A DNA stretch of 53,617 nucleotides, from assembly GCA_964545885.1 (NCBI GenBank), contig CAZJHG010000005.1, positions 1 to 53,617 of the forward strand. Reading direction: 5' to 3'. Of this stretch, positions 25,254 through 47,539 are shown in pieces. Below the pieces are notes generated by a model. It searched no databases. It worked only from the letters and a program-made list of their open reading frames with translations, and was not told the origin of the DNA. The DNA is from an uncultured Muribaculaceae bacterium (GTDB taxonomy: Bacteria; Bacillota_I; Bacilli_A; RF39; UBA660). Both the position numbers and the translations under genes were made by a program. Position 1 is the first letter of the stretch. The number at the start of each line of letters is the position of its first letter.

Positions 25254-25484
25254 ATGGATCGAACCGAGGAAATTGAAACCTTGAAAAAGGTTGTGTTTAA
25301 TTTAAAATTACAGATGGCTATGAAGAAAAATAATAATGATGAATTATTGGAATTGTCTGAAAAAGCTCAAATAATACAAAGAAGAATTGATACATTACAA
25401 AAGGAAATTGAAGAATCTAATGGACAAGTTGGATTTGCATTTTCAGAATTGATAGATGTAACAAAAGTAAAGAAAGGAAGATAA
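25254..25484 (+). CDS. small coiled-coil protein between the T-box and thrS
   Basis: GGGAG RBS; helical heptad pattern. Its 3' end (AAAGGAAG) supplies the thrS RBS, and thrS starts 2 nt after its stop. Confidence 0.65.
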   Translation: MDRTEEIETLKKVVFNLKLQMAMKKNNNDELLELSEKAQIIQRRIDTLQKEIEESNGQVGFAFSELIDVTKVKKGR

Positions 25485-25486
25485 AA

Positions 25487-27253
25487 ATGGTAAATTTTAA
25501 AGAAGATGAAATATTAAACAAATTAAATCATAGTTGTGCACATTTACTTGCACAAGCAGTAAAACATTTATATCCACAAGCTAAGTTTTGGGTAGGACCT
25601 GTTGTAGAAGAAGGTTTTTACTATGATATTGACTTAGGTGATGATGTTTTAGTAGAAGAAGATTTAGAACGTATTGAAAGAGAAATGAAAAAATGTTCTA
25701 AGTCTGCTAAAAATATTATAAGAAAAGAGATTTCTAAAGAAGAAGCTTTGGAAATGTTTAAAGATGATGAATACAAGATAGATTTAATTGAAAGAATGGA
25801 TGAAGAAGAAGGACCAATATCTTGTTATCAACAAGGAGATTTTACTGACCTTTGTAGAGGCCCACATATGGAAAATACTAAAGAAGTTAAGTATTTCAAA
25901 TTAATTAAATTTAGTGGTGCTTATTGGAAAGGCGATGCTTCTAAGAAAATGCTTCAAAGAATATATGGAGTATGTTTTCCTTCACAAGAAGAACTTGATG
26001 CACACTTAAAAGAATTAGAAGAAATGAAATTAAGAGATCACAGAAAAATAGGTAAAGACTTAGAAATATTTATGATAAGTGATTTAGTAGGTAAAGGATT
26101 ACCTATGTATTTACCAAATGGATACTTAATTTGGGACTTATTAGAACAATATATTAAAGGTAAAGAAAGAAATTTAGGATATTTACATGTATTAACTCCA
26201 CCATTAGGAAATGTAGAGTTATATAAGACTTCAGGACACTGGGATCATTATAAGGAAAATATGTTCCCTATGATGAAAGTTGAAGATGAAGAGTTTGTTC
26301 TTCGTCCAATGAATTGCCCTCATCATATGGTTGTATACAGTAATAATGTACATTCATACAGAGATTTACCTATTAAGATCGGTGAAATAGCTAGAGATTG
26401 TCGTTTTGAATCAAGTGGTTCATTAAAAGGTATTGAAAGAGTTAGAACATTTTGTCAAAATGATGCTCACTTATTTGTAACTCCAGAACAAATTCAAGCT
26501 GAATTTAGTGAAGTAGTTAATTTAATACTTGAAGTTTACAAAGAACTAGGAATTAAAGATTATAGATTTGAATTATCTTTAAGAGATCCTGAAGATAAAG
26601 TTAAGTATTATCCAGATGATGAAATGTGGAATAATGCGGAGAATACATTAAGAAAAGTATTAGATGGTTTAAATTTAGATTATGTAGAAAAAATTGGTGA
26701 AGCAGCATTCTATGGACCAAAACTTGATGTTCAAGTTAAACCAGCTGTTGGACCTGAGTATACATTATCTACTTGTCAATTAGACTTCTGTTTACCAATG
26801 CGTTTTGATTTAGGATATATTGATAATGAAGGTAATAAACAAACTCCAGTAGTATTACATAGAGCAATATTTGGAAGTATAGATAGATTTATGGCTTATT
26901 ACTTAGAAGAAACTAAAGGATATTTACCTGTATGGTTAGCTCCTAAACAAGTTGAAGTTGTACCAGTAAATATTCAATATCATGAAGAATATGCTAGGGA
27001 AATTTATGAAGCTTTAAAGAAAGCTGGTTATAGAGTAGCATTAGATGATAGAAATGAAAAACTAGGATATAAATTAAGAGAAGCTGTTATTAAAAAGATT
27101 CCTTATATGTTAATATTAGGACAAAAAGAAGTTGATGAAAAATTAGTTTCTTATAGAAGAGCTGGCAGTGAAGAAACTACTACTGTAACTTTAGAAGAAT
27201 TTATTGAACTATTAAACGATGATATTCGAAATAAAGTAAGATATGATAAATAA
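25487..27253 (+). CDS. thrS: threonyl-tRNA synthetase (no N-terminal TGS domain)
   Basis: HSCAHLLAQAV, DLCRGPH, RDHRKIG, RPMNCPHH, EAAFYGPKLD and HRAIFGSIDRF motifs. Confidence 0.97.
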   Translation: MVNFKEDEILNKLNHSCAHLLAQAVKHLYPQAKFWVGPVVEEGFYYDIDLGDDVLVEEDLERIEREMKKCSKSAKNIIRKEISKEEALEMFKDDEYKIDLIERMDEEEGPISCYQQGDFTDLCRGPHMENTKEVKYFKLIKFSGAYWKGDASKKMLQRIYGVCFPSQEELDAHLKELEEMKLRDHRKIGKDLEIFMISDLVGKGLPMYLPNGYLIWDLLEQYIKGKERNLGYLHVLTPPLGNVELYKTSGHWDHYKENMFPMMKVEDEEFVLRPMNCPHHMVVYSNNVHSYRDLPIKIGEIARDCRFESSGSLKGIERVRTFCQNDAHLFVTPEQIQAEFSEVVNLILEVYKELGIKDYRFELSLRDPEDKVKYYPDDEMWNNAENTLRKVLDGLNLDYVEKIGEAAFYGPKLDVQVKPAVGPEYTLSTCQLDFCLPMRFDLGYIDNEGNKQTPVVLHRAIFGSIDRFMAYYLEETKGYLPVWLAPKQVEVVPVNIQYHEEYAREIYEALKKAGYRVALDDRNEKLGYKLREAVIKKIPYMLILGQKEVDEKLVSYRRAGSEETTTVTLEEFIELLNDDIRNKVRYDK

Positions 27254-27260
27254 TTAGGTC

Positions 27261-27285
27261 AAAAGTGGAAGTTTTCCACTTTTTT
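27261..27285 (+). terminator. thrS terminator
   Basis: AAAAGTGGAA/TTCCACTTTT stem followed by a T-run. Confidence 0.8.
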
Positions 27286-27373
27286 CTTTTGTTGTTTAAT
27301 ATTTTTTTTGTTCTTTATTGAATAATTAGTTGAATAATGATATTATTTTTATAGTATGGTGAGGTGTGTTAAA

Positions 27374-27703
27374 ATGGCAGGTAATGCAGGAACTGGTGGT
27401 TCTTTCGTTTTTGAAGCTGATTCAGACAAATTGGAAGAAATTGCTAGTGCTATGAAGAAAAAAATAGAAAGTGCAAAGGGATTTAGAGATTCTATTGCCA
27501 ATACCATAACTACTTTGTCTACAGATGGTTCATGGTCAGGTGATGCAAGTGAACTTTTTGTCGAAAAAACAAATTCTTATAAAGATGAATTCGAAGAAAT
27601 GACTAAGTGTTTAGAAACATATGTTGAGGTTATAAAAGATGTTTCAGGATCTATTGATAGATTAAATGAAGAAATAAAAATTATTTGCGGAAGGTTGGAT
27701 TAA
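27374..27703 (+). CDS. WXG100-family T7SS substrate
   Basis: Start ATG 27374 (GAGGTG RBS). About 109 aa helix-turn-helix with central DGSWSGDAS. Confidence 0.85.
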   Translation: MAGNAGTGGSFVFEADSDKLEEIASAMKKKIESAKGFRDSIANTITTLSTDGSWSGDASELFVEKTNSYKDEFEEMTKCLETYVEVIKDVSGSIDRLNEEIKIICGRLD

Positions 27704-27704
27704 T

Positions 27705-28028
27705 ATGGGAAATCTTGGATATAATGAATCATTAGATGGTCATATTGCAAATATAGATAGTCTTTCTACAGAATTTTTAGGTGTTTTAAACGATATAAAT
27801 GGAATTGTTGGAGAATCTATAAATATTTCTGGTGGAGCTATTTATGGTGATGCGGCGGCTAGGTTAGAACAAGTATGGGACGAAAAATGCGGTTCTTTTA
27901 AAGAATATTATAATTTATACCAAAATTTTGTTTCTCAACTAACACAAATTAGTAATGCAAATAAAGAAGCACAAGCAGAAGCTGATTCTATTTATGTGGA
28001 AGCAGCTGAGACAGCAGATAATGCTTAG
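27705..28028 (+). CDS. WXG100-like protein, IYG variant
   Basis: 107 aa helical hairpin with central GGAIYGDAAARLEQVW...F..YY..YQ.F. Confidence 0.7.
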   Translation: MGNLGYNESLDGHIANIDSLSTEFLGVLNDINGIVGESINISGGAIYGDAAARLEQVWDEKCGSFKEYYNLYQNFVSQLTQISNANKEAQAEADSIYVEAAETADNA

Positions 28029-28044
28029 AAAGGATTGATTTTTA

Positions 28045-28260
28045 ATGGCAGCAATGAGAAGTCAAGTTTCACAATTGACAGAATATAGAGATGAACTAGT
28101 TAATATATCAAACAAACTAAATTCTTCTTTGATTTATAACACTGAGAATTCAGTAGCAGCTCTTTATGAAGAATTAAAGAAGTTTATTACTATATTAAAC
28201 AATAATATAACAAATATACAACAAAATGCATCTGCTATAGATAGTAATAAGAAATGGTGA
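28045..28260 (+). CDS. small helical-hairpin protein (putative Lap-type T7SS partner)
   Basis: 71 aa, two amphipathic helices, directly upstream of a large substrate-like gene. Confidence 0.55.
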   Translation: MAAMRSQVSQLTEYRDELVNISNKLNSSLIYNTENSVAALYEELKKFITILNNNITNIQQNASAIDSNKKW

Positions 28261-28264
28261 TAGT

Positions 28265-30622
28265 ATGTCAAGAATAAAAGTAGATAAAAATGAATTATCG
28301 TCAATAATTAGTCAACTAAAAAATACAAGAGATGGTTTATCTAGTGCATTATCAAGTGCGGTTTCTTCAGTACCTAAAAAAGTTGATTTATCGAGGTTTC
28401 CTTTCACATATACCGATAGGGTAAAAGAAACTGTATGGGATGAGGAAGAGTCTAAATATGTTGATAAATTTAAAACAGTTACTAGACATAGATATCAAAA
28501 TGAAGGAAGAAGATTTAATTCAGCTATCTCTAATATTAATCCACAATTACAGAATGTAACTAATGGTTTGAAATATTTAGATAATGTAATAAATGCGCTT
28601 AGTGAAATTCAAAGTGCAGTAAATGAATTTGAAGAGACAGATTATACTGGAAGGTTGGCGGCTTTTAGTTTTGATTTTAATTGGAAAAATCCAGGAGCTA
28701 CTCCAGCAATTGATTCGTTAGATAAAGATACTATTACGACTATTGCATTAGAAAATGGCTGGATAGAAACAGAAGAAGATTTCGATGAAGAAGATTACTA
28801 TAATTTATTGTCTTATTTAATGAATATTGTTGGTGTTGATAAATTTGAAGATTTAACTACGACTGAAGATATTCTTGCTAGTTTAGAGAATTTCTTTGAT
28901 GATGAAGATGGTGATGATGAATCTCCTGATGAGGAAGGAAAACCAGAGGATGGTGAAACATCTGAAGAGGGTGAAGAATCTGAAGGTGATGATGAAAAAT
29001 CTGAAGAAGATTCTGAATCAGAAGATGGTTCTGAAGAAGGAGAAGATACTGGAGAAGAAGAATCTGAATCTAGTGAAAGTGAATTAGGCGACAGTGAAGA
29101 AGATGGTGCTCCTAAGAATGAAGATGAAAAAGGTAATGTCGGTGAAAAAGGACAACCAGAAATAAAAGAAAATAAACCTTCGCCGGAAATTAATGATAAA
29201 ATTGTAACAAAAACCAATACTGTTGCTGATGCCGGAGAAAGAAAACAGGAAAAATCTCCTACAAATCAGCCTAGTTCAGGTGGCCAAAATGTTTATCATT
29301 CATCAGAAGATAAAAAGCAGCATAATGAAGAGAATGCTGTTAAGCATAATAATTATGAATCTATTTCTCAATCACATGTTGAGAAAAAAGAAGAAAATTT
29401 CGATAATAAACATAACGAAAATGTTCGACCTAAAGATGAATTTGATGCTTCAATTATGGATAAAGAAAATGTTGATGGTAAAATAGAAGCTTCTGATAAT
29501 ATTCCTAAGAATGATGTAAAAGCTGATGTAGGAATTAAGGATGTACTAAATAATAATGAGTCTAGTAATAATTCTAAGGATGATAATGTAGATTTACCAA
29601 AGATTAAGGATGATTTTAATAGAATTGATTCTTCAAATGGTACTGATAATTCTATAACAGATGATACTGGTGATGATAAAGTTGTTTCATCAGCTGTAGC
29701 TGGTGCTATAGGAATTGGTTCATTAATTGGTGGAAATACAGATGTTCCGACTATTTTACCAGGGTCTTCTGATCCGGTAGTAGGTGATTTTAACTATAAT
29801 AATTTACTTAATACAGAAACAATAACACCAAATGGTTCTGGTACTTATCCAAATAATAATATTGATAATAGTACTATTTATGGTAGTAATAATAACAACA
29901 ATAGTAACAATTATGACAATAACAATAAATATGATAATTATAATAATGTTGCTAATAAGTCTTCGAATTCTAATGAAGGAGTACTTGGTAAAGGTAAATC
30001 AAATTCAAATGGTTCTTCTATAAATAAAGAGAATGAAACAAATAATGTATCAGAAGGCTCAGTTCAATCTGGGACTCTAGGTGAAGCTTCTTATGTTGAA
30101 ATGTTAGCTAAAGAAGAGAAAAAATATAAAATTGCTACTGCAACATCAATATCTGCATCTTTATTGATGTTAGGATTTAAGTATATTGGAGTTATTGGAT
30201 GGTTAACTTTATTATTACTAATTGCGGCTATTATATTAGTTTATACAACTTATAGAGCTAGACATAAAAAGAAGAAAAAGAAACTTGAAGCTTTAATTAG
30301 AATAGAAAGAGAAAAATCTATATTTGAACGTGAGAAAGAAAAACATATGTCTTTAGAAGAAGCTGCTAGTGCTGAGGTAGTTGAAGAGACTTCTAGTGAA
30401 GCAGAAGAAACTTCAGAAAATATTCAATCAGAAGATATTCAAGAAGAAATAACTGAAAATAATGACATTCCAAAAGAAGAAGTTCAAGTACAAGAAATTG
30501 AACAAAATCTTCCAATACTTCCAGAGCAAAAAGAATTTCAAATGGCTGAAGAAGTTATTTACGGAGAAATGCCTCAAAAAAATCCTGAAATTGAAGTAAA
30601 TGAAGAGAATGTTGAAAATTAG
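28265..30622 (+). CDS. large acidic protein: LXG/WXG-like N-terminus, D/E/N-rich stalk, C-terminal TM hairpin
   Basis: N-terminal helices ending in FEETD (FxxxD); long D/E/S/N low-complexity middle; IATATSISASLLMLGF-IGVIGWLTLLLLIAAIILVY then RARHKKKKKK and an acidic tail. No Sec signal. Confidence 0.7.
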   Translation: MSRIKVDKNELSSIISQLKNTRDGLSSALSSAVSSVPKKVDLSRFPFTYTDRVKETVWDEEESKYVDKFKTVTRHRYQNEGRRFNSAISNINPQLQNVTNGLKYLDNVINALSEIQSAVNEFEETDYTGRLAAFSFDFNWKNPGATPAIDSLDKDTITTIALENGWIETEEDFDEEDYYNLLSYLMNIVGVDKFEDLTTTEDILASLENFFDDEDGDDESPDEEGKPEDGETSEEGEESEGDDEKSEEDSESEDGSEEGEDTGEEESESSESELGDSEEDGAPKNEDEKGNVGEKGQPEIKENKPSPEINDKIVTKTNTVADAGERKQEKSPTNQPSSGGQNVYHSSEDKKQHNEENAVKHNNYESISQSHVEKKEENFDNKHNENVRPKDEFDASIMDKENVDGKIEASDNIPKNDVKADVGIKDVLNNNESSNNSKDDNVDLPKIKDDFNRIDSSNGTDNSITDDTGDDKVVSSAVAGAIGIGSLIGGNTDVPTILPGSSDPVVGDFNYNNLLNTETITPNGSGTYPNNNIDNSTIYGSNNNNNSNNYDNNNKYDNYNNVANKSSNSNEGVLGKGKSNSNGSSINKENETNNVSEGSVQSGTLGEASYVEMLAKEEKKYKIATATSISASLLMLGFKYIGVIGWLTLLLLIAAIILVYTTYRARHKKKKKKLEALIRIEREKSIFEREKEKHMSLEEAASAEVVEETSSEAEETSENIQSEDIQEEITENNDIPKEEVQVQEIEQNLPILPEQKEFQMAEEVIYGEMPQKNPEIEVNEENVEN

Positions 30623-30650: not shown

Positions 30651-30679
30651 TTGTAATTAATAAATATTTAAGTTATAAT
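30651..30679 (+). promoter_or_regulatory. sigma-A promoter of essC
   Basis: TTGTAA-N17-TATAAT. Confidence 0.6.
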
Positions 30680-30708
30680 TTTATATAGAATATGGGAGTG
30701 TGGCAGGT

Positions 30709-33700
30709 ATGAAAATAATGTTAATGGATGCAACCAAATTAGTTAATTTAATTTTACCTAAAGAAGTGTTTGGTAACTATTGGATTGTTAATGCCAACAA
30801 AGATAATTTAGTTAGTGTACAAGCCATTGATAATAGTTGGGTTTTAAAAAGCAATAGTGAAGTAAAGGTATTTAGAAATGGTACAGCTGTTGATGAAGCG
30901 TTGATGGAAAGCGAGAAATTTTATACCTTAAAAAATATTTTAACTGGTGAAAGCTATGTTGTTTATACTTGCCCGGTATATGATGAAAATTCTCTTCAAT
31001 TAAGACTTAATTATAACGTTAAAGCAAATGGTTCATCTTGGTATATAGGAAATAATGGATCACAGGATAATGCTTCTAATTTTCCTAATGTTATATCTTA
31101 TGAGCAACCTGGTATTGCTAGAAACCAATTAAAAATTGTTTTTAGTGATGAAAAATATGCTGTTTATAATTTAAATACTTCATTACCAATGTATGTTAAT
31201 GGAATTCCTTGTGAGGCTTCTGAATTAAGAAATGGCGACAATATATTTATGTTAGGATTTAAGTTATCTATAATTAATGATATCTTTTATGTAAATAATC
31301 CTAATAAGTTAGTAAAATTTGATTCTCAAGTATTTGCAATAAGACAACTTCCTACTTTGGATTACACTAAGATATCTAGTGAAGCGGATCCTGTTATAGA
31401 GATGTATAAAAAAGAAGATTATTTTTTAAAGCCGCCAAGATTCGATGAAAAAATTGAAGAAAAAGTTTTAGTAATCGATCCACCTCCAGCAGCTCAAAAT
31501 CAAGAAGAGATGCCAGCTATATTTACGATGGGTTCTATGATGATGATGGGTATGAGCTCTGTAATGTCTGGAATTATAACTCTTACAAATGTACTTAATG
31601 GAACTACAGAACTTAGTACTGCATGGTCATCTTTACTAACTGCAGCTGCTATGCTTACTTGTATGTTGATACTTCCTACTTGTAGTAAAATGTATAATAA
31701 ACATAAAAAGAGAATGTATGAAAGAAAAAGACAAGCAACCTATAGTATGTATGTTAATAAGAAACGTGAAGAATTCTTAACAGAAATGAAAAAAGAACAA
31801 CAAATTCTTATTGATAAATATATTCCTTTAAAAGATGTTGGAGATATAATACTTTATAAAAAACGTAATTTATGGGAGAAAAATACAAGTGATTATGATT
31901 TCTTATCATTGAGATTAGGTATTGGTTCTATTCCACCATTTTTTAAGATAAATTATCCAGACGAGCATTTTTCAATGGAAGATGAAGATAATTTGATGGG
32001 ATATTTAAGAGAACTTGAAAAAGAAACAAGTATGCTTGAAAATGTTCCAGTTACATATTCTTTTGTTGATAAATATATTACTGCTGTAATAGGTCAAAGA
32101 AATGTTACTAATCCTTTCTTAAGAGGATTACTATTACAGATATTTGCTTATCACGGATATGATTCATTAAAAGTTTGTGTTTTTACTAATAAAGAAAATG
32201 CAAAGTTTTGGGAAGATGTTAAAGATTGTCCTTATTTCTGGAATGATCAAAGAACATTAAGATTTTTTGGTACTAATAGTGATGAAATTAACCAGATTAG
32301 TTCTTATTTTGAAGAAATGTTAAGTTCTTTAAAGGAAGCTAACGAGGATAGAGGTAATTCTACTTCTAAAGAACCGTTAAAACTTAGTACTAGGTATTTG
32401 ATTATAACTGATGATATTGATTTGGTTAGAAATGTTAGTTTAATTCGTTCTTTAATTGAATCAGAGAGTTATATTGGTATGAGTTTAATTATATTTACTG
32501 AGAAATTAAATTCTTTACCTAATGAAGTTGAACATTTTATTAGTGTAGATGAACGTTCTGGTGGAGTATTTGAACGAGTTCTTACTGGTAGTAAAAGAAT
32601 TAATTTTGTACCTGATTTTATGTTTGGTTCTCTTGATAAATATGCATATGTTGTTTCTAATATTCCAATAGCCTTAAATGGTGGTAAATTCCAATTACCT
32701 GGTTCATATTCTTTCTTGGAAATGTATAATGTTTCTAATGTTAACCAATTGAATGCTCTTTCTAGATGGAAGGAAAGTGATCCTATTAACTCTCTTTCTG
32801 CACCAATAGGAATTAATGAATATGGAGATTTGTTTAAGTTGGATTTACATGAAAAGTCACATGGACCACATGGTTTAATTGCTGGTATGACTGGTTCTGG
32901 TAAGTCAGAATTTATTATTACTTTCATATTAAGTACTGCTCTTAATTACCATCCTTATGAAGTACAGTTTGTATTAATTGACTATAAAGGTGGTGGTTTA
33001 GCTGGTGCTTTTGAAAATAGAGAAACTGGTCTTAAATTACCACATTTAGCTGGTACAATAACAAACTTAGATGTATCAGAGATTAATCGTTCTTTGGCTT
33101 CTTTACAATCTGAGTTAAAAAGAAGACAAGCTATATTCAATAAAGCTAGAGATAAAGTTGGAGAATCAACTATAGATATATATAAATATCAGAGATTGTA
33201 TAGAAATGGTCAAGTTGATAGTCCTGTCGCACACTTATTTATTGTTTCAGATGAGTTTGCGGAGTTGAAAGCACAACAACCTGATTTCATGAACGAACTT
33301 ATTTCAACTGCACGTATCGGACGTTCATTGGGTGTTCACTTAATTTTGGCAACACAAAAGCCAAGTGGTGTAGTTAATGATCAAATTTGGTCAAACTCTA
33401 AATTTAAAGTATGTTTAAAAGTTCAAGATAGGTCAGATAGTCAAGAAATGATAAAAAGACCTGATGCTGCTTCTTTAAAAGAAACTGGAAGATTCTACTT
33501 ACAAGTTGGTTATGATGAATACTTTGCTTTAGGTCAGTCAGCTTGGACAGGAGCTCCTTACTATGAATCTGATGTAAGAAAGAAAAAAGTTGATAATACT
33601 ATAACTTTTGTTGATAATTTAGGAATGCCTTTTAAAATTGTTGATGATGGTAAACAAAATTTTACTGGTGTATTAAAGGGTGAAGAGTTGCCAAATATAA

Positions 33701-35367
33701 TGAAATATTTAGTTGATATAGCTAAAAAAGAAAACATTAATATTAAACAACTATGGTTAAATTCTTTGGCTCCTGTAATATTTATAGATGGTTTAAAAGA
33801 AAAATATAGTTATAAAAAAATCGATTGTGATATTAACCCAGTAGTTGGTGAGTATGATGCTCCAAATTTACAAAAACAAGGATTACTTACTTTACCGATT
33901 ACCCAAGGTGGTAACTGGATAATCTATGGTATGGCAGATAGTGGTAAAGAAGAAATGATTAACTCTTTAGTTTATTCATGTATTACTACATATTCACCTT
34001 TAGAGTTAAATATGTATTTGTTAGATTTTGGTGCTGAAACTCTTAAGATGTATAGAAAAGCTCCTCAAGTTGGTGATGTCATTTTACAAAATGATGTTGA
34101 TAAAGTTACTAACTTATGGAGAATGCTTCAAGAAAAGATTGCTAGTCGTAAAAAAATGTTTGCTGATTATGGTGGAGATTATATTTCTTATTCTAAAGCA
34201 ACAGGTAAAGTATTACCAAATGTTGTAGTTATAATTAATGGTTTTGAACTATATAATGAAAACTATGGAGATGCTACATTTGATTTACTGGCAACTATAA
34301 CTCGTGATTGTCAGAAATATGGTGTTTATTTTGTAATGACTTCTAATACTGCTAATGGTATTAGATCAAGGCTTGCTCAATACTTACCAAATCATCTAGT
34401 ATTCCAAATGAATGATAAATATGATTATAGTTCACTTCTTGGAAGAACGAAGTTAGAGCCTTCCGATATATCTGGTAGAGGTTTGGCAAAACTTGATGCT
34501 ATTTATGAATTTCAAGCAGCTGTGCCTACTGAGAAAGAAAACTTAAATACAATGGTTTTAGAAAAGATTAAAACTTTATGTGAAAAATATCCTAATGGTG
34601 CTCCGAAAGTACCTGTGTTACCTGAAGTTGTTACTATAGCTGATGTTGCTGATTCTGTAAAAGGTCTTGCTTCTGTACCAGTTGGTATAGAAAAAGAATC
34701 TTTGAAAGTAAGATGTTTAGACGTTACAAAGAGTCTTGTTCATGTTATTACAGGAATGGAATTTGGCGAAATAAAGACATTTGGTGGTATGTTTATTAAA
34801 GAAATTTCTAATATTGTAGGTAAGAATTGTTACGTATTTGACTTAGAAAAATTATATAAAGATTATTCTTCTAATGTATCTTATTATGATACAAATATTT
34901 TAGAAGAATTTAAAACGTTTGGTAAATTTGTTTTTGATTCATTTACTAAATTTAAAGAAGCTGGTTTTGATGCTAGTGCATTAAAGGATCAAGGAGAGTA
35001 TGTTTGCTTTATAGTTGGTATTGAAAAATTCAAAAATATCTTAGGCTCTGAATTTGAAGGTGCTTATGGTGGGTTATTGACTATGATTAAGTCGATGCCA
35101 AAATTCCATTTTATTTTAATCGATACATGTGATAACTTTAAAAAGCGTGAATTTGATTCATGGTATAAAGATACTATATCTGGTACTAAGGGATTATGGA
35201 TTGGTAATGGAATGGGTACTCAATATACTCTTAAATCAACATTATCAACTAGAGTATTAGGGGCTAAGGTCGATAAGAATTTCGGTTATTATGTAGATGG
35301 AAACACAACTGTTTTAGTTAAATATATTTCTGAAGTTGGTGAGGAAGAAGTTTATGAAACTTTATAA
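30709..35367 (+). CDS. essC: type VII secretion ATPase EssC/YukB
   Basis: Likely start ATG 30709. Two N-terminal FHA-like domains (LPKEVFGNYW; MYVNG...LRNGDNIF), two TM segments, DLHEKSHGPHGLIAGMTGSGKSE, DYKGGG, SDEFAELK, RIGRSLGVHLILATQKP. D2 (GMADSGKE) and D3 are degenerate. Confidence 0.95.
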   Translation: MKIMLMDATKLVNLILPKEVFGNYWIVNANKDNLVSVQAIDNSWVLKSNSEVKVFRNGTAVDEALMESEKFYTLKNILTGESYVVYTCPVYDENSLQLRLNYNVKANGSSWYIGNNGSQDNASNFPNVISYEQPGIARNQLKIVFSDEKYAVYNLNTSLPMYVNGIPCEASELRNGDNIFMLGFKLSIINDIFYVNNPNKLVKFDSQVFAIRQLPTLDYTKISSEADPVIEMYKKEDYFLKPPRFDEKIEEKVLVIDPPPAAQNQEEMPAIFTMGSMMMMGMSSVMSGIITLTNVLNGTTELSTAWSSLLTAAAMLTCMLILPTCSKMYNKHKKRMYERKRQATYSMYVNKKREEFLTEMKKEQQILIDKYIPLKDVGDIILYKKRNLWEKNTSDYDFLSLRLGIGSIPPFFKINYPDEHFSMEDEDNLMGYLRELEKETSMLENVPVTYSFVDKYITAVIGQRNVTNPFLRGLLLQIFAYHGYDSLKVCVFTNKENAKFWEDVKDCPYFWNDQRTLRFFGTNSDEINQISSYFEEMLSSLKEANEDRGNSTSKEPLKLSTRYLIITDDIDLVRNVSLIRSLIESESYIGMSLIIFTEKLNSLPNEVEHFISVDERSGGVFERVLTGSKRINFVPDFMFGSLDKYAYVVSNIPIALNGGKFQLPGSYSFLEMYNVSNVNQLNALSRWKESDPINSLSAPIGINEYGDLFKLDLHEKSHGPHGLIAGMTGSGKSEFIITFILSTALNYHPYEVQFVLIDYKGGGLAGAFENRETGLKLPHLAGTITNLDVSEINRSLASLQSELKRRQAIFNKARDKVGESTIDIYKYQRLYRNGQVDSPVAHLFIVSDEFAELKAQQPDFMNELISTARIGRSLGVHLILATQKPSGVVNDQIWSNSKFKVCLKVQDRSDSQEMIKRPDAASLKETGRFYLQVGYDEYFALGQSAWTGAPYYESDVRKKKVDNTITFVDNLGMPFKIVDDGKQNFTGVLKGEELPNIMKYLVDIAKKENINIKQLWLNSLAPVIFIDGLKEKYSYKKIDCDINPVVGEYDAPNLQKQGLLTLPITQGGNWIIYGMADSGKEEMINSLVYSCITTYSPLELNMYLLDFGAETLKMYRKAPQVGDVILQNDVDKVTNLWRMLQEKIASRKKMFADYGGDYISYSKATGKVLPNVVVIINGFELYNENYGDATFDLLATITRDCQKYGVYFVMTSNTANGIRSRLAQYLPNHLVFQMNDKYDYSSLLGRTKLEPSDISGRGLAKLDAIYEFQAAVPTEKENLNTMVLEKIKTLCEKYPNGAPKVPVLPEVVTIADVADSVKGLASVPVGIEKESLKVRCLDVTKSLVHVITGMEFGEIKTFGGMFIKEISNIVGKNCYVFDLEKLYKDYSSNVSYYDTNILEEFKTFGKFVFDSFTKFKEAGFDASALKDQGEYVCFIVGIEKFKNILGSEFEGAYGGLLTMIKSMPKFHFILIDTCDNFKKREFDSWYKDTISGTKGLWIGNGMGTQYTLKSTLSTRVLGAKVDKNFGYYVDGNTTVLVKYISEVGEEEVYETL

Positions 35368-35539: not shown

Positions 35540-35797
35540 ATGAATAATAATAAGGTCTGTGTAGATTTGATTGTACCTGGCATTGAAGAAAGATACAATG
35601 TTTTTATTCCTGTTAATAAGAAGACTATTGAAACTATATTCCTATTAAATAAAGCTATTAATGATATGACTAGTGGAGCGTACGCCATGAATGAACATTT
35701 ATCATTAATAAATGCTGATGACGGAACTGTTTATGATGTTGATAATACTTTTTTGGAAAACAACATTTTAAATGGTGCAAAACTAATATTATTATAG
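35540..35797 (+). CDS. esaB: EsaB/YukD ubiquitin-like T7SS accessory protein
   Basis: 85 aa with V.VDLIVP....YNVFIP.NK.I..I..LL...L.E.NILNGAKLILL ubiquitin-like pattern; next to essC. Confidence 0.8.
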   Translation: MNNNKVCVDLIVPGIEERYNVFIPVNKKTIETIFLLNKAINDMTSGAYAMNEHLSLINADDGTVYDVDNTFLENNILNGAKLILL

Positions 35798-38658: not shown

Positions 38659-40965
38659 ATGGCGAACGTTGTAAAATATAATCGTGCTAATAAAAAGTCT
38701 GCTATTTCTAATATTTCTTCTTGTAACGAACAGATAGGAACAGTTAAGGAATATTTAAGTAGCTTTCATGATGATGCTGTTAGTGAATATTCCACTTGGA
38801 ATAATTATATTACTCCTATTACTCATTATGTTCTGGAAAATGGAGACGAGAAAACTCTTTATTATTCCAGATTTAATAATTGTACTTTTAGCACTTATAA
38901 TAGTGCATACAATAGTGCAGATCAAAGTTGTAGAAGATATAAAGATAATTTTACTTCTAAACTTTCATCATTTAGTGCAAAGTGTAACAAAATTTGTAAC
39001 AATGTTGAGACCTCATTAAAAAAAATTACTGATTGTTTAAATGCAATAGAAGTAGCAGCTGACGCATTTAATAATTCTAGTGTTAGTCTTTCTGATATTA
39101 TTGATAGTTTGGAAGGGGCTGGATTAGCTGATAATATTACGATTGAAACTAATGGAAATACTGAAATAGTTTATTATAATGTTTATGATAGTAATGGTGA
39201 ATTAGTTGGACGATTTACTATTGCAGAAATGGTTAACTCTTTTTATACATATGCGGGTTCTGCAATGTCTAGTGTTGTTTCGGCTAATGTATTAATAGAT
39301 GGGTATGACAATATGTCTGATGCAGAAAAAGATAGATATTTAAATAATCTAGTATCTGGTATTGGTAATAATGTTTATCAATTAATGGGTGCTGGTTTTA
39401 TGTCTGTAGCTGCTGAAGGAGATATAAAAGGATTATACGAAGCTGTGTATGGTAGTGGCACTTATGCTAGTTTAACTAGTGAATATGGTAGTTTATATGG
39501 AGACGATGATAATAACAAACTTAATTTATTAAGTTCGGCTGAAGTAGAAAAATGTGGTGGTTTCTTAACTGGTGGTGCTGCTATTGCGGCAAGTGCGGCA
39601 TATACATTAGGAGACAATTTATACTCTGATGAACAAGCTCAAGAAGCTAAGGAAAGAATAGCCGGATACGAAAATACAGCTAAGGATGAAAGTGAACCTG
39701 AGGTCGATGATGTGACTCCTTATACTGGTGATAGAGGTACCGGTGCTAAACCAACTCCTGACTATGGTGCAAGTGATGATGATATTGACACTTTAGAACC
39801 AGATGATAATTCAGATGCTGATGATATTTTAGATACTGATGATAAGGTTGATGAATTACCTGAAGAACCAGCAGAAGAAACTCCAAATGAGATGGATGAT
39901 AGAATAACTGAAGTTGTGGAAAGTTCTATTCCTGATACTCAAGAAGATTTAACATTGTCTAACGATGATATTGATGCAATGGCAAATGAAGAGTTCTTTA
40001 AAAATTATAATGGTGAGTCATTGACTGAACGTAGACAAGCTGATGTAGATGCGTTTGAAAATTTATATAATCAAGAAAATAAAGAAGAATTAGCTAATTT
40101 ATTTGAGGAGATAGGTTATTCTAGTGATGAAGTATCAGCTCTTATTGAAAATAAGGAACTTGGATTACAAGCTTATATGTTAAATTCTCAAAATAAGGAA
40201 ATGGCTGAAATAGCTAATAAGATTGCTGAGGATATGGGAGTAAATGATTTTGATACCGTATATGATGATGCTCCTAATTATAGTAATTTTAGTGATGGTG
40301 ATGTTCAAGCTGCATTGTCTGATATTTCTGGAAATGAATCTATTGCAGATGTAAAAAATAGCTTTGATACAGCTAAAAACTCATATATTGAATCTGTTTC
40401 AAAGGCAAATGATTCAATAGCTACTGCACAACAAGCTAAGACTAATTTAGAAACAGTAAAGGCCGAAATAGAGGCTCAGTCTGGTACTGATACAAATAAT
40501 TGGACTGATTCTCAAGTTGAAAAGTATAATAATGCAACACAATCTTATAATTCGGCAGTTGCTCAAGCAAATGAAGATGTCGCTGCAGCTGGAGAAGCTA
40601 AGAACAATTATATAGAAGCGAAGAATACTTACGAAGAAGCAAAAAATGAATTATATGATCAAATAAAAAAAGAAGTTCAAGGTAATGGTGGAGATGTTTC
40701 TTCGGATAATAATGAGAATGTTGAAAATAGTGGAACAGGTTCTTCTGATAGTGATATTATTGATGATTTCTTGAGTGCTACTAAGACAAGTGAAGATGTT
40801 AGTGATTCAAATAGTCAAGGACAAAATGATTATGACTCTGTTAACAATGCACAAGATAATAGTAACAATAGTAACAATAGTAACGATAATAGCAGTACTG
40901 AAAGTAATTCTTCAGAAGAAACTGAAAGTAATGATGATATTTTAAAACAATTTTTAGGTATGTAG
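38659..40965 (+). CDS. large acidic putative T7SS substrate (paralog of 45404-47539)
   Basis: Helical N-terminus, TIAEMVNSFYTY segment, GGAAIAA helix, D/E linker, conserved C-terminal helical domain, and tail motif D(I/L)(I/L)xxFL. Confidence 0.7.
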   Translation: MANVVKYNRANKKSAISNISSCNEQIGTVKEYLSSFHDDAVSEYSTWNNYITPITHYVLENGDEKTLYYSRFNNCTFSTYNSAYNSADQSCRRYKDNFTSKLSSFSAKCNKICNNVETSLKKITDCLNAIEVAADAFNNSSVSLSDIIDSLEGAGLADNITIETNGNTEIVYYNVYDSNGELVGRFTIAEMVNSFYTYAGSAMSSVVSANVLIDGYDNMSDAEKDRYLNNLVSGIGNNVYQLMGAGFMSVAAEGDIKGLYEAVYGSGTYASLTSEYGSLYGDDDNNKLNLLSSAEVEKCGGFLTGGAAIAASAAYTLGDNLYSDEQAQEAKERIAGYENTAKDESEPEVDDVTPYTGDRGTGAKPTPDYGASDDDIDTLEPDDNSDADDILDTDDKVDELPEEPAEETPNEMDDRITEVVESSIPDTQEDLTLSNDDIDAMANEEFFKNYNGESLTERRQADVDAFENLYNQENKEELANLFEEIGYSSDEVSALIENKELGLQAYMLNSQNKEMAEIANKIAEDMGVNDFDTVYDDAPNYSNFSDGDVQAALSDISGNESIADVKNSFDTAKNSYIESVSKANDSIATAQQAKTNLETVKAEIEAQSGTDTNNWTDSQVEKYNNATQSYNSAVAQANEDVAAAGEAKNNYIEAKNTYEEAKNELYDQIKKEVQGNGGDVSSDNNENVENSGTGSSDSDIIDDFLSATKTSEDVSDSNSQGQNDYDSVNNAQDNSNNSNNSNDNSSTESNSSEETESNDDILKQFLGM

Positions 40966-45403: not shown

Positions 45404-47539
45404 ATGGCAGTTGTAAAAATTAATAGTGCTGAACTTGAAGCTATTGAAGAACAAATTGTAAAAGCTAGAGAATATATAGATGATGCTGAGAGTGAATGGG
45501 GCGAAAATTTTGATAATTTGTATTATGCTTTTATAGAAAATGGTTTTTTAGATGATTTATACGAAGATGCAAAGAGTAATTATTATTCGTTAAAAAAATG
45601 GGGAAATGCTCTTTCGTGTACTGCTGGTGGAGCAATTCTTGGTTTGAATTTTGGACCTATTGGTGGAATTGTTGGTGCAGTTATTGGTGCAATTTTTGGT
45701 ATTACTATGGCAGTTATAACTGATCCTGTATGGCTAGAGTATTCTAAAGATGCTTTTATAAATTTACTTACTAATTGTTATTATGGTAATGATGATAGTT
45801 ATATTCAACTTGTTAATGTAGCGACGATGCTTTATAATTGTCAGGTATCTATGGAAAAAATTAAAACTTTAGTAAATGATTATCAGCAATTATATGCTAA
45901 TTTAAATGCTACTGCTGATGCTATGGGAGTAGTTACTACTTTAGCTAGTGATGGTACTACTGTTTTAAGTATTGATACTGAGGTAACAATTGATGGTCAA
46001 ACTGTTCAATTATCGACAAGTGAAGCTTTAAATGCTTTATATACTTATGAAAATGTTGTTATGTCTGCTGAATTTGAGGGTGAATATTTAGCTAGTTTGG
46101 GATATGAAGTTGATTTTAATTCAATTGTTTCAAACGCTAATTCATTTATGACAAGTACTATTTCTAGTGGATTATATTCTCATGAGTTTATTGAAGGAAT
46201 ATTACCTACTTATACTCCGGATTCTGATGCTGCTACTGATAATGTCGTTAATGCTTTAGAAATGGATGCTTCTGGTGTTCAATCATTACTAAATAGTGTA
46301 AGTAATTTAAATATTTTTCAAGGCTTGGGATTGGTTGGTGCTTCTATGCTAGCTGGTTCCGTTAGTAAACCTGCAGAAGATGATAATGGCTCTGATGGTG
46401 GAAATAACGGCGGAAATAACGGCGGAAATAACGGCGGAAATAACGGCGGAAATAATGGTGGGAATAATGGTGGAAATAACGGTGGAAATAACGGCGGAAA
46501 TAATGATAGCATCGATGATAAAGATGAAGAAGATAAAACTGTTGATATTAAGTTAACTGAATTGATTGAATTAGATATTCCTGATGCACTTGATGAATTA
46601 GCTATTGATGGTGAAGATATTGACGAGATGGCTAGAGAACTATTCTTTGAAAAGTATCAAGGTGCTGATTTGACTGCTCGTAGACAAGAAGATTATGATG
46701 CTTTTGAGTTATTATATAATAGAGATGATAAATCAGAATTAATTGCCTTATTTGAAGGTATTGGTTATGGTGCAGCTGAAGCTGTAGGACTTCTTACTGA
46801 TAAAGAAGTTGCTCTTCAAGCATATATTTTAAATTCTCAAAATAAAGAAATGTTAGAAATTGCAAATGGACTTGCAGCTGATTATGGAATAACAGATTTT
46901 AAATCTTCATATAGTGATGCTCCTGATTATCTTGATTTTGTTACTGGTGATGGACAGGCTGCATTGACTGATTATTCTAATAGTAAAGAAGTTGTAGAAG
47001 CTAAAACTGCTAGAAATGAAGCTAAAGAGGCTTATTCAAAAGCGGTTACTGATGCAAATGAATCTATTTCTAATGCTAATCAAGCTAAGAGTGATTTGGA
47101 AGCATTGAAAGCTGAAATTGAGAGTACTTCTGGTACTGATAGTTCTAAATGGACTGCAGAACAAGCTGAGAAATATAACGAGGCTGTTGATGCTTATAAT
47201 GAAGCTGTTCAAGAAGCTAATGATAAGATGGCTTTAGTTGATGAAGCTAAGGAAACTTATACTGAGGCTGTAGATTCTTATGAAGCTGCTAAAACTGAAT
47301 TTATTAATACTATAAAGAGACAAGTTCAAGAGGGTAATGGTTCTATTTTACCTGGTGAAGCTTTGATTGATTCTCCTGGTAGTTCATCTAATGGTGGTTC
47401 ATCTAGTGGTGGTTCTTCTAATGGAAACTCTTTTAGTGGTAGTACATTTGAGAGCTCTGATGCCTCAAGTGGTGACTCTAATAATGATACTAGTGATAGT
47501 GATTTAATTGGTGGCTTCTTGGATTTGGCTGGTAAATAA
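45404..47539 (+). CDS. large acidic putative T7SS substrate with a glycine zipper (paralog of 38659-40965)
   Basis: GGAILGLNFGPIGGIVGAVIGAIFG glycine zipper, (GGNN)9 linker, and a C-terminal domain closely matching that of 38659. Confidence 0.72.
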   Translation: MAVVKINSAELEAIEEQIVKAREYIDDAESEWGENFDNLYYAFIENGFLDDLYEDAKSNYYSLKKWGNALSCTAGGAILGLNFGPIGGIVGAVIGAIFGITMAVITDPVWLEYSKDAFINLLTNCYYGNDDSYIQLVNVATMLYNCQVSMEKIKTLVNDYQQLYANLNATADAMGVVTTLASDGTTVLSIDTEVTIDGQTVQLSTSEALNALYTYENVVMSAEFEGEYLASLGYEVDFNSIVSNANSFMTSTISSGLYSHEFIEGILPTYTPDSDAATDNVVNALEMDASGVQSLLNSVSNLNIFQGLGLVGASMLAGSVSKPAEDDNGSDGGNNGGNNGGNNGGNNGGNNGGNNGGNNGGNNGGNNDSIDDKDEEDKTVDIKLTELIELDIPDALDELAIDGEDIDEMARELFFEKYQGADLTARRQEDYDAFELLYNRDDKSELIALFEGIGYGAAEAVGLLTDKEVALQAYILNSQNKEMLEIANGLAADYGITDFKSSYSDAPDYLDFVTGDGQAALTDYSNSKEVVEAKTARNEAKEAYSKAVTDANESISNANQAKSDLEALKAEIESTSGTDSSKWTAEQAEKYNEAVDAYNEAVQEANDKMALVDEAKETYTEAVDSYEAAKTEFINTIKRQVQEGNGSILPGEALIDSPGSSSNGGSSSGGSSNGNSFSGSTFESSDASSGDSNNDTSDSDLIGGFLDLAGK
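46397..46504 (+). repeat. 12-bp coding tandem repeat x9 (GGNN)
   Basis: GG(C/T)GG(A/G)AATAA(C/T) repeated nine times over 108 bp. Confidence 0.95.

Follow-up and report, generated by a model that had tools for sequence, protein, structure and literature searches.

The 53,617-nucleotide contig CAZJHG010000005.1 of an uncultured Muribaculaceae bacterium (assembly GCA_964545885.1; RF39, UBA660 in GTDB), which is the window analyzed here in its entirety, codes for a 785-aa protein (P0001; 28265..30622, + strand) that lies behind three small genes and directly upstream of essC, the gene for the motor ATPase of a secretion system of type VII (T7SS). Our analysis of these four genes, hereinafter the cassette, indicates that P0001 and its three helpers form an optional, fast-evolving add-on to one EssC lineage, with P0001 probably being its exported cargo. 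As for the mechanism, the account toward which we lean, with some reserve, is that of an EssC-lineage-specific cargo with Lap-like partners, the N-terminal part of which would be exported while its membrane module is retained and its tail remains inside the cell. That the open reading frame is a real coding gene under selection is clear from its retention in seven loci and from an omega well below 1 in its membrane module.

The optional nature of the cassette emerges from its distribution. Every one of the 27 species of the genus codes for essC, usually in at least two copies and with at least one full-length EssC-type match each, and a full-length profile of the family recovers a P0001-type protein in only four of them, namely the source genome (G000), G003, G004 and G013. 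The cassette is also found in three further metagenomic loci, each time directly upstream of essC, and there are thus seven loci in which the gene occupies this position behind the three small genes (G000, the P0003 contig, G003, where it is split over two contigs, G004, G013 and the P0014 and P0030 contigs). When the region upstream of essC was read in 22 other species, thrS was found to be followed directly by essC in 13 and separated from it by an unrelated gene in three; in the others, either the genes were unrelated, the contig ended there or the EssC was another paralogue. The source genome's second, full-length essC paralogue (G000:C2:9112-13743, 1543 aa) likewise has unrelated genes and nothing comparable upstream; a row of small genes on the opposite strand lies downstream of it. 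The first-pass annotation of the window, made without database searches, had proposed association with essC in other genomes as a check on its own reading: the adjacency held in all seven loci of known context, but the family is absent from 23 of the 27 essC-bearing species.

The EssC and ThrS trees further reveal with which of its neighbors the cassette is inherited. Six cassette-bearing loci are represented in the EssC tree, where they form a single clade (support 100/99; 100% of the bootstrap trees) with one change of the cassette label. In the ThrS tree, the four GTDB species constitute one clade beside the cassette-less G006, the P0030 lineage falls far off with the cassette-less G022, and the label needs at least two changes. 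Both G006 and G022 are placed on the opposite side of the EssC tree from the cassette clade; G006 is sister to the G000 clade by ThrS and distant from it by EssC, with the reverse being true of the P0030 contig. This conflict implies that the cassette travels with one essC lineage independently of the flanking thrS, and the strong discordance of the two trees is also a sign that the essC region has recombined or been exchanged within the genus. A comparable co-segregation of a substrate module with an EssC lineage is described in two reports (PMC5994694, PMC10327511) for the EssC-variant-specific substrate sets of Staphylococcus aureus (essC1-4) and Listeria (essC variants). The EssC clade of the cassette carriers differs from these in being marked by five diagnostic columns only, with no sharply divergent C-terminal domain or other sharply distinct region.

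The same distribution bears on the proposal of the first-pass annotation that P0001 substitutes for EsaA, and more generally on the idea that it is a core replacement for EsaA or EssB, i.e., a wall-spanning or channel-forming part needed by a minimal T7SS. Such a missing part is conceivable, as models for EssB, EsaA, EssA and YukD gave no match over threshold in five genomes of the genus: the EsaA model TIGR03929 had no match in the source genome and returned only noise (E=0.07) in four relatives, and PF10140 (EssB/YukC) matched neither the source genome nor the relatives. Moreover, in the canonical gene order, esxA-esaA-essA-esaB-essB-essC, the slot directly upstream of essC that P0001 occupies is that of essB. 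However, 23 of the 27 species retain at this site an orthologous essC, which thrS often abuts, and have no homologue of P0001 anywhere in the genome; there is no counterpart at the second essC paralogue of the same genome; and P0001 is hypervariable, whereas core genes are conserved. Nor does it possess an N-terminal transmembrane (TM) segment, a folded ectodomain or a pseudokinase domain. EssB/YukC combines an N-terminal pseudokinase with a single central TM and an extracellular C-domain, and the architecture of P0001 is the reverse of this. EsaA, together with YueB/PIP, is similar to P0001 in being a large membrane-anchored protein of the T7SS locus that may reach through the wall, and its hypervariable phage-receptor tip parallels the tip that we propose below for P0001. 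In contrast to P0001, with its disordered middle, optional occurrence and lack of a TIGR03929 match, EsaA is a conserved core part, in which TM domains at the two ends flank an elongated, folded 'there and back again' ectodomain (bioRxiv 10.1101/2020.08.17.254201). With homologues in only 4 of the 27 essC-bearing genomes, hypervariability and none of the features that define EsaA, the proposal does not survive: since 23 species manage with an orthologous essC and no homologue, the cassette is neither a core part nor an EsaA substitute, and we regard this reading as essentially refuted and highly improbable. Rather, the null results with the four component models and the restriction of the family to four species imply that the genus runs a minimal T7SS, which in most species operates without a P0001-type protein.

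A second line of evidence comes from the pace and pattern of divergence. Between G000 and G013 or G004, amino acid identity is 95-96% for ThrS, 88-90% for EssC and 92-94% for an 85-aa gene after essC, as against 18-31% for the four cassette genes. In the closer pair, G013-G004, the whole-gene omega is 0.24-0.72 for the cassette genes and ~0.04-0.05 for thrS and essC, these values, like the others given here, being rough because dS is near saturation and low-complexity parts align poorly. Within P0001, comparison of three pairs identifies the membrane module (the juxtamembrane helix, TM and polybasic patch) as the most constrained part, with an omega of 0.04-0.13 and 71-96% identity, followed by the N-domain (0.14-0.57) and the spacer (0.39-0.72), with the same ranking in all three. 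In other words, it is the N-domain, the three partner genes and the spacer that diversify, whereas conservation is concentrated at the membrane end, opposite to the pattern of a polymorphic toxin. Such a gradient is as would be expected of a buried anchor with an exposed distal tip.

P0001 has no family in Pfam or NCBIfam. A word-indexed search of 5.8 billion proteins recovered only two relatives, both at 70% identity, the reach of this search being limited in that low-complexity words swamped the candidates, for whole-protein and 19-member-alignment queries alike. When 1.84 billion cluster representatives were searched exhaustively by HMMER with an N-domain profile, 23 proteins were recovered at E<=0.001, ranging from 166 to 1174 aa. 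None of their clusters is named in any source, and Pfam scans at relaxed thresholds detected no recurrent family among 19 members beyond generic TM noise. Outside the genus, no convincing member emerged from profile searches of 401 genomes of the taxonomic family and 399 scored genomes of the class. Locus searches recovered only the already-known G004 locus when genome contigs were queried with the family, and gave no match in metagenome contigs with a 9-sequence alignment. One candidate, in G014, was rejected: it is an unrelated protein, polytopic and with a tail rich in Lys and Glu.

A single architecture is common to the full-length members: an N-domain beginning MAyVKfDKE, a hypervariable middle, a Gly/Ala-rich segment, an LGKGKS motif, a juxtamembrane helix (GVLGDSSYAELIAKNEKEVKIAT), a hydrophobic stretch of 40-46 residues ending in YTTFR and a polybasic patch, and an acidic tail ending in KEFQSAEEVIYGE. 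The middle is acidic, Pro/Thr-rich or Ser/Thr/Asn-rich and measures ~300 to ~900 residues from the N-domain to the juxtamembrane helix. The tail is missing in two distant members, P0018 has the N-domain without the membrane module, and P0025 has it on a polytopic region.

In P0001 itself (all parts on the + strand), nearly all of the elements listed by the first-pass annotation are borne out. There is no Sec-type signal, no hydrophobic stretch being present before residue 470. The N-terminus is indeed helical, with the core of the N-domain (aa 1-124; 28265..28636) carrying an F/Y-E at the end of helix 2. The D/E/N-rich stalk corresponds to a hypervariable spacer (aa ~195-607; 28847..30085) that is first D/E-rich (Asp and Glu make up 49 of residues 201-300) and then N/S-rich (Asn accounts for 31 of residues 501-600); it is predicted to be disordered (AlphaFold2 predicted local distance difference test score, pLDDT, ~30), and its length changes greatly between species. 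The membrane module (aa 603-673; 30071..30283) comprises the juxtamembrane helix GTLGEASYVEMLAKEEKKYK, a first hydrophobic helix (H2, 623-638), a break at K639-Y640, a second (H3, 641-663) and the RARHKKKKKK patch at residues 664-673, just as annotated. The acidic tail is likewise confirmed (aa 674-785; 30284..30619), with 27 D/E vs 3 K/R in residues 701-785. Beyond that list, we found a third conserved hydrophobic element, a Gly/Ala-rich segment (VVSSAVAGAIGIGSLIGG, aa 473-490; 29681..29734) that is conserved across the family. The FxxxD motif fared less well: two copies exist (F122-D126 and F173-D177), but the family keeps only F/Y122-E123 near-invariant, with D126 in a minority of clades.

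The tail ends in a motif, EQKEFQMAEEVIYGE (aa 754-768; nt 30524-30568, + strand), of which the stretch from E754 to E768 is invariant or near-invariant in two family alignments. Its conserved form is KEFQxAEEVIYGE; G004-type relatives carry an EE[VI][IV]Y-like motif three times (ENVIYQ, EEIVYV, EEVIYG), and the G003-type clade has a different conserved tail end, EFSEQPYEPSRDG. The tail end looks like a short linear binding motif.

With regard to the N-domain, AlphaFold2, given a 15-sequence alignment, predicts for residues 5-124 a helix (8-35), a beta-hairpin (48-75) and a second helix (78-124) at a pLDDT of 71-87. An earlier model built with 3 sequences reached a pLDDT of 53, and a Foldseek search with it was uninformative. 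On the better model, the N-domain is an antiparallel helical hairpin with a variable beta-hairpin at the turn, and this, together with a profile alignment over both helices, matches the ~100-residue antiparallel helical hairpin of the WXG100 superfamily. In that alignment, a 21-sequence N-domain profile matched the WXG100 proteins of the locus with an hhalign probability of 69% (E=4e-5, 91 columns). Scans with single sequences were weaker, recovering a YwqH-like match at E=0.009 and WXG100 (PF06013) at E=0.087 and 13.5 bits against a cutoff of 27.3; a profile search of the PDB recovered the WXG-like protein HP0062 at E ~0.03. Matches of the N-domain to coronavirus HR1 and syntaxin structures were set aside as reflecting heptad-repeat composition and not homology. 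The W-x-G turn was not found in the N-domain, the variable beta-hairpin being inserted there instead, and the LXG model PF04740 matched neither of two N-domains at E<=5 nor any of 19 full-length members at E<=1. Few genomes of the sampled class have canonical LXG (matches in 6 of 151, over the cutoff in 2); the source genome has a single match, in a 204-aa open frame (G000:C7:4989-5477, 28.9 bits, just above the cutoff). Further along the window, the N-terminus of a 768-aa putative substrate (38659-40965) matches the N-domain profile (hhalign E=0.003, 122 columns), and a 711-aa protein at 45404 begins MAVVKINSAEL. These resemblances suggest that a single class of targeting domain may be common to several of the large proteins across the locus.

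The three small genes (+ strand), which our alignments show to be conserved in all seven loci, reinforce the likeness to T7SS cargo. Gene 1 (27356..27703; 115 aa) codes for a WXG100 protein with a conserved W-x-G (PF06013, 28.1 bits against a cutoff of 27.3; TIGR03930, E=4.7e-9), and gene 2 (27705..28028; 107 aa) for a Trp-less WXG-like hairpin protein that has GAIYG in place of the WXG turn and a conserved GAIxG...W...C signature (TIGR03930, E=9e-4). Gene 3 (28045..28260) codes for a 71-aa helical protein of helix-turn-helix size with a C-terminal NKKW, which is kept in 7/7 loci and has no match in Pfam and NCBIfam scans. Genes 1 and 2 each keep one Cys in every clade (..IC.. near the C-end of gene 1; W...C, four residues after the conserved Trp, in gene 2), and these residues could form a metal site or a conserved disulfide between molecules. 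According to the literature, one or two small Lap genes related to WXG100 typically lie ahead of a T7SS substrate (PMC11217815). The cargo likeness noted in the first pass thus gains substance from the position upstream of essC, the WXG100-type and helical genes of the operon, the hairpin of the N-domain and the confinement to one EssC clade.

The nearest parallels are the LXG and Lap modules of T7SSb, such as TelA/TelC of Streptococcus intermedius and EsxX with LapX3/LapX4 of Staphylococcus aureus, with which the cassette has in common a helical targeting N-domain, small WXG100-related genes upstream, the setting in a T7SS locus, strain variation and linkage to a particular EssC lineage. The Lap-type part of this layout is present, with three helical genes, one of them over the WXG100 cutoff, immediately upstream in all seven loci. 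Other features differ: P0001 has no PF04740 match, it has a beta-hairpin and not LXG at the turn, and a long disordered spacer separates its two ends; where those modules have a swappable, variable C-terminal toxin and a downstream immunity gene, it has a conserved membrane module followed by a terminator and essC.

This comparison also raises the possibility that P0001 is a fully secreted effector, in which the Gly/Ala segment and the H2-H3 hairpin would insert into a target membrane in the manner of the glycine-zipper LXG toxins TelE/EsxX/TspA or the pore-forming colicin hairpin. The order of small WXG-like genes and then a large protein is that of an LXG toxin module (PMC11217815, PMC12744356), H2 is rich in small residues, and the patchy, strain-variable distribution is typical of competition factors. 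The Gly/Ala segment fits the zipper pattern (G/A/S)xxxGxxxG in P0001 (AIGIGSLIG, 481-489), as it does in the P0014 and P0016 clades, but there is no strict zipper in P0004-P0007, the largest clade. On the Wimley-White octanol scale, the segment is not predicted to span the membrane (+2.9 to +7.3 kcal/mol in the relatives scored; ~+4 for P0001 by hand sum). TelE/EsxX/TspA do resemble P0001 in their T7SS linkage, helical N-domain, partner genes and Gly/Ala-rich segments near the C-terminal part; they are, however, proteins of ~500 aa whose zipper lies at the extreme C-terminus and next to which soluble or polytopic immunity proteins are encoded, whereas in P0001 the Gly/Ala segment is followed by a classical TM, the polybasic patch and a 110-aa acidic tail. 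Known membrane-depolarizing T7SS toxins have adjacent immunity genes, consisting of a DUF5085 pair and/or a polytopic membrane protein (PMC12744356); no immunity-like gene accompanies P0001, and hydrophobic segments are lacking from all three small proteins. The conservation of the C-terminal module runs counter to the polymorphic-toxin pattern, and a 23-residue, very hydrophobic helix followed by at least 8 K/R and the long acidic tail looks like a resident stop-transfer anchor. Taken together, we consider a fully secreted effector quite unlikely.

How the membrane module is threaded is the crux of the matter. The 41-residue hydrophobic stretch 623-663, strongly favorable on the Wimley-White octanol scale and broken by K639-Y640, is what the first pass described as a double-TM hairpin; it may be either a hairpin or a juxtamembrane helix followed by one TM. 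AlphaFold draws a single continuous, low-confidence helix over 608-703. In most members, the residues following H3 carry a net charge of +2 to +6, and this flank, with its 8 K/R, is likely to be cytoplasmic. Preceding H2 are 4 K/R within 15 residues, a conserved Lys cluster, and 1 lies in the H2-H3 loop. A single span with the N-terminus out and the C-terminus in is what the short H2, the exposed-type composition of the spacer and the evolutionary gradient point to; a hairpin with both termini inside fits the Lys cluster, the turn-forming residues between H2 and H3, and a trivial biogenesis.

The latter topology underlies a further alternative, namely that P0001 is a cytoplasm-facing, tethered adaptor or regulator. 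Its H2-H3 hairpin would be inserted via YidC or Sec, and the spacer would let the N-domain and its partners reach EssC as a pseudo-substrate, gatekeeper or recruitment platform. For a protein without a signal peptide this is the simplest biogenesis, as only a loop of 2-4 residues must cross the membrane; the K/R counts of 4, 1 and 8 are the best fit to the positive-inside rule; and a turn-forming K, N, P or G between H2 and H3 is conserved in every clade. The distant P0025, with the same N-domain on a polytopic membrane region, is in line with it, and a precedent exists in TsfJ of T7SSf, which has two TM and both domains predicted to be cytoplasmic (PMC11217815). TsfJ, along with TsdH/TseK (a single TM and an unstructured cytoplasmic stretch) in the T7SSd-f range, is comparable to P0001 as a small membrane anchor on disordered or cytoplasmic regions, from non-canonical T7SS loci without EssB and EsaA. 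These proteins differ from it in being conserved core candidates with FHA or DUF6382 or no domain, and in having no WXG-like N-domain, Lap-like partners or hypervariability. Indeed, Garrett, Higginson and Palmer (2024), who describe the T7SS variants c to j and Lap-like genes beside candidate substrates, report none with the architecture of P0001 (PMC11217815). Against an adaptor, a purely intracellular regulator would hardly be expected to diversify so extremely, and in concert with its partners, in its N-domain (omega up to 0.7) when EssC is 88-90% conserved. The Pro/Thr- and Ser/Thr/Asn-rich hypervariable spacers are also more typical of exposed regions, such runs being commonly seen in wall-spanning or exposed parts of proteins. 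Further, H2, which is rich in Ser/Thr/Ala, measures only ~16 residues in several clades and has an Asp inside it in one member, and the AlphaFold model, for all its low confidence there, draws no hairpin. We hold this alternative to be unlikely.

Accordingly, we return to the reading of P0001 as a cargo that stays anchored, which may be pictured thus. The WXG100, WXG-like and 71-aa proteins would bundle with the N-domain as Lap proteins do with LXG, and the bundle would be presented to EssC. Upon delivery, the N-domain and the long disordered spacer would be exported, and the C-terminal module would be held in the membrane of the producer by the hydrophobic helix 641-663 and the RARHKKKKKK patch that follows it, leaving the acidic tail with its KEFQxAEEVIYGE motif in the cytoplasm. 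The outcome would be a hypervariable stalk with the N-domain and its partners at an exposed tip. That there is a wall for such a stalk to span follows from the presence of five penicillin-binding-protein genes and several sortases in the source genome. A more detailed version is speculative and on balance somewhat unlikely: a T7SSb machine of EssC and little more would export the ~600 N-terminal residues while the stop-transfer-like module stays; the WXG-like tip and the co-exported partners would diversify under pressure from phages, hosts or rivals; and H2 might switch from a membrane hairpin to a juxtamembrane state during export.

Several points weigh against an anchored cargo. We know of no T7SS that leaves a stop-transfer-anchored cargo in the membrane, and a full-text literature search for T7SS substrates with a C-terminal transmembrane anchor returned no precedent. 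The Lys cluster before H2 and the K/N/P break agree at least equally well with a helical hairpin whose two ends lie in the cytoplasm. The N-domain falls below the Pfam thresholds for both WXG100 and LXG, and Foldseek with the better model gave nothing below E=0.3, its top matches being prefoldin and V-ATPase stalk hairpins. Given the weak profile matches and the null Foldseek search, the N-domain is best described as hairpin-like and plausibly WXG100-related, but not demonstrably a WXG100 or LXG member; of the WXG/LXG likeness on which the first-pass annotation made its reading depend, therefore, the helical hairpin and its alignment with the WXG100 proteins of the locus stand and the formal membership does not. 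The lack of a sharply distinct EssC region means that physical linkage alone could explain the co-inheritance, and adjacency to essC is not independent evidence, as all loci of known context come from one genus and one syntenic site. To these may be added the roughness of the omega values.

The source metagenome-assembled genome is 1.54 Mb in size, ~66% complete and of ~28% GC. The cassette forms an operon between thrS (25487-27253) and essC, its genes abutting or nearly so (27703/27705, 28028/28045 and 28260/28265). P0001, the fourth gene, starts with an ATG 4 nt past the stop of the preceding gene and has a GGTGA Shine-Dalgarno-like site upstream. A terminator-like hairpin with a 10-pair stem and a T run follows thrS (27261..27283, + strand), marking the upstream boundary, and a second overlaps the stop codon of P0001 (30621..30645, + strand), marking the downstream one; with four abutting genes flanked by these two hairpins, the cassette is likely to be its own transcription unit. 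A promoter-like site, TTGTAA-17-TATAAT (30651..30679, + strand; a consensus match only), precedes essC (30700..35367, + strand; TIGR03928, 971.8 bits against a cutoff of 778.4). The listed start of essC is the GTG at 30700; all orthologues begin MK[IV][MV]L[ML]D, mostly MKIMLMD, and on account of these N-termini the true start is probably the ATG at 30709. Just 5' of thrS, a 76-aa coiled-coil-like open reading frame (25254-25484) is kept in position by many species of the genus, with the cassette or without it (68-91 aa, of the MDRTEEIE... type). On its 3' side, essC is followed by a number of small genes of WXG-like type, along with large putative substrates and DUF4176 genes. No small gene of the locus is more conserved than the 85-aa one immediately behind essC (35540-35797), with an amino acid identity of 88-98% between species and 92-98% within the G000/G013/G004 clade, as against 23-74% for its WXG-like neighbors in the same species. 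By this conservation it appears to behave like a core part; the YukD model PF08817 had no match in G000 at E<=1.

T7SS cargo is generally regarded as being released, and surface display in Gram-positive bacteria as proceeding via Sec and sortase or lipoprotein anchoring. If the reading we lean toward is correct, a T7SS cargo anchored by a conserved C-terminal module would constitute a new route to the surface, the EssC channel would be capable of releasing a transmembrane segment sideways, and P0001 would be the first T7SS-dependent, integrally anchored surface protein. Even on a conservative view, this is a rare, unnamed family with a fixed and unusual architecture, and a clean natural experiment is offered by closely related species that have or lack the cassette at a locus that is in other respects the same. 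The minimal EssC-only systems of uncultured gut Firmicutes carry fast-diversifying add-ons specific to an EssC lineage.

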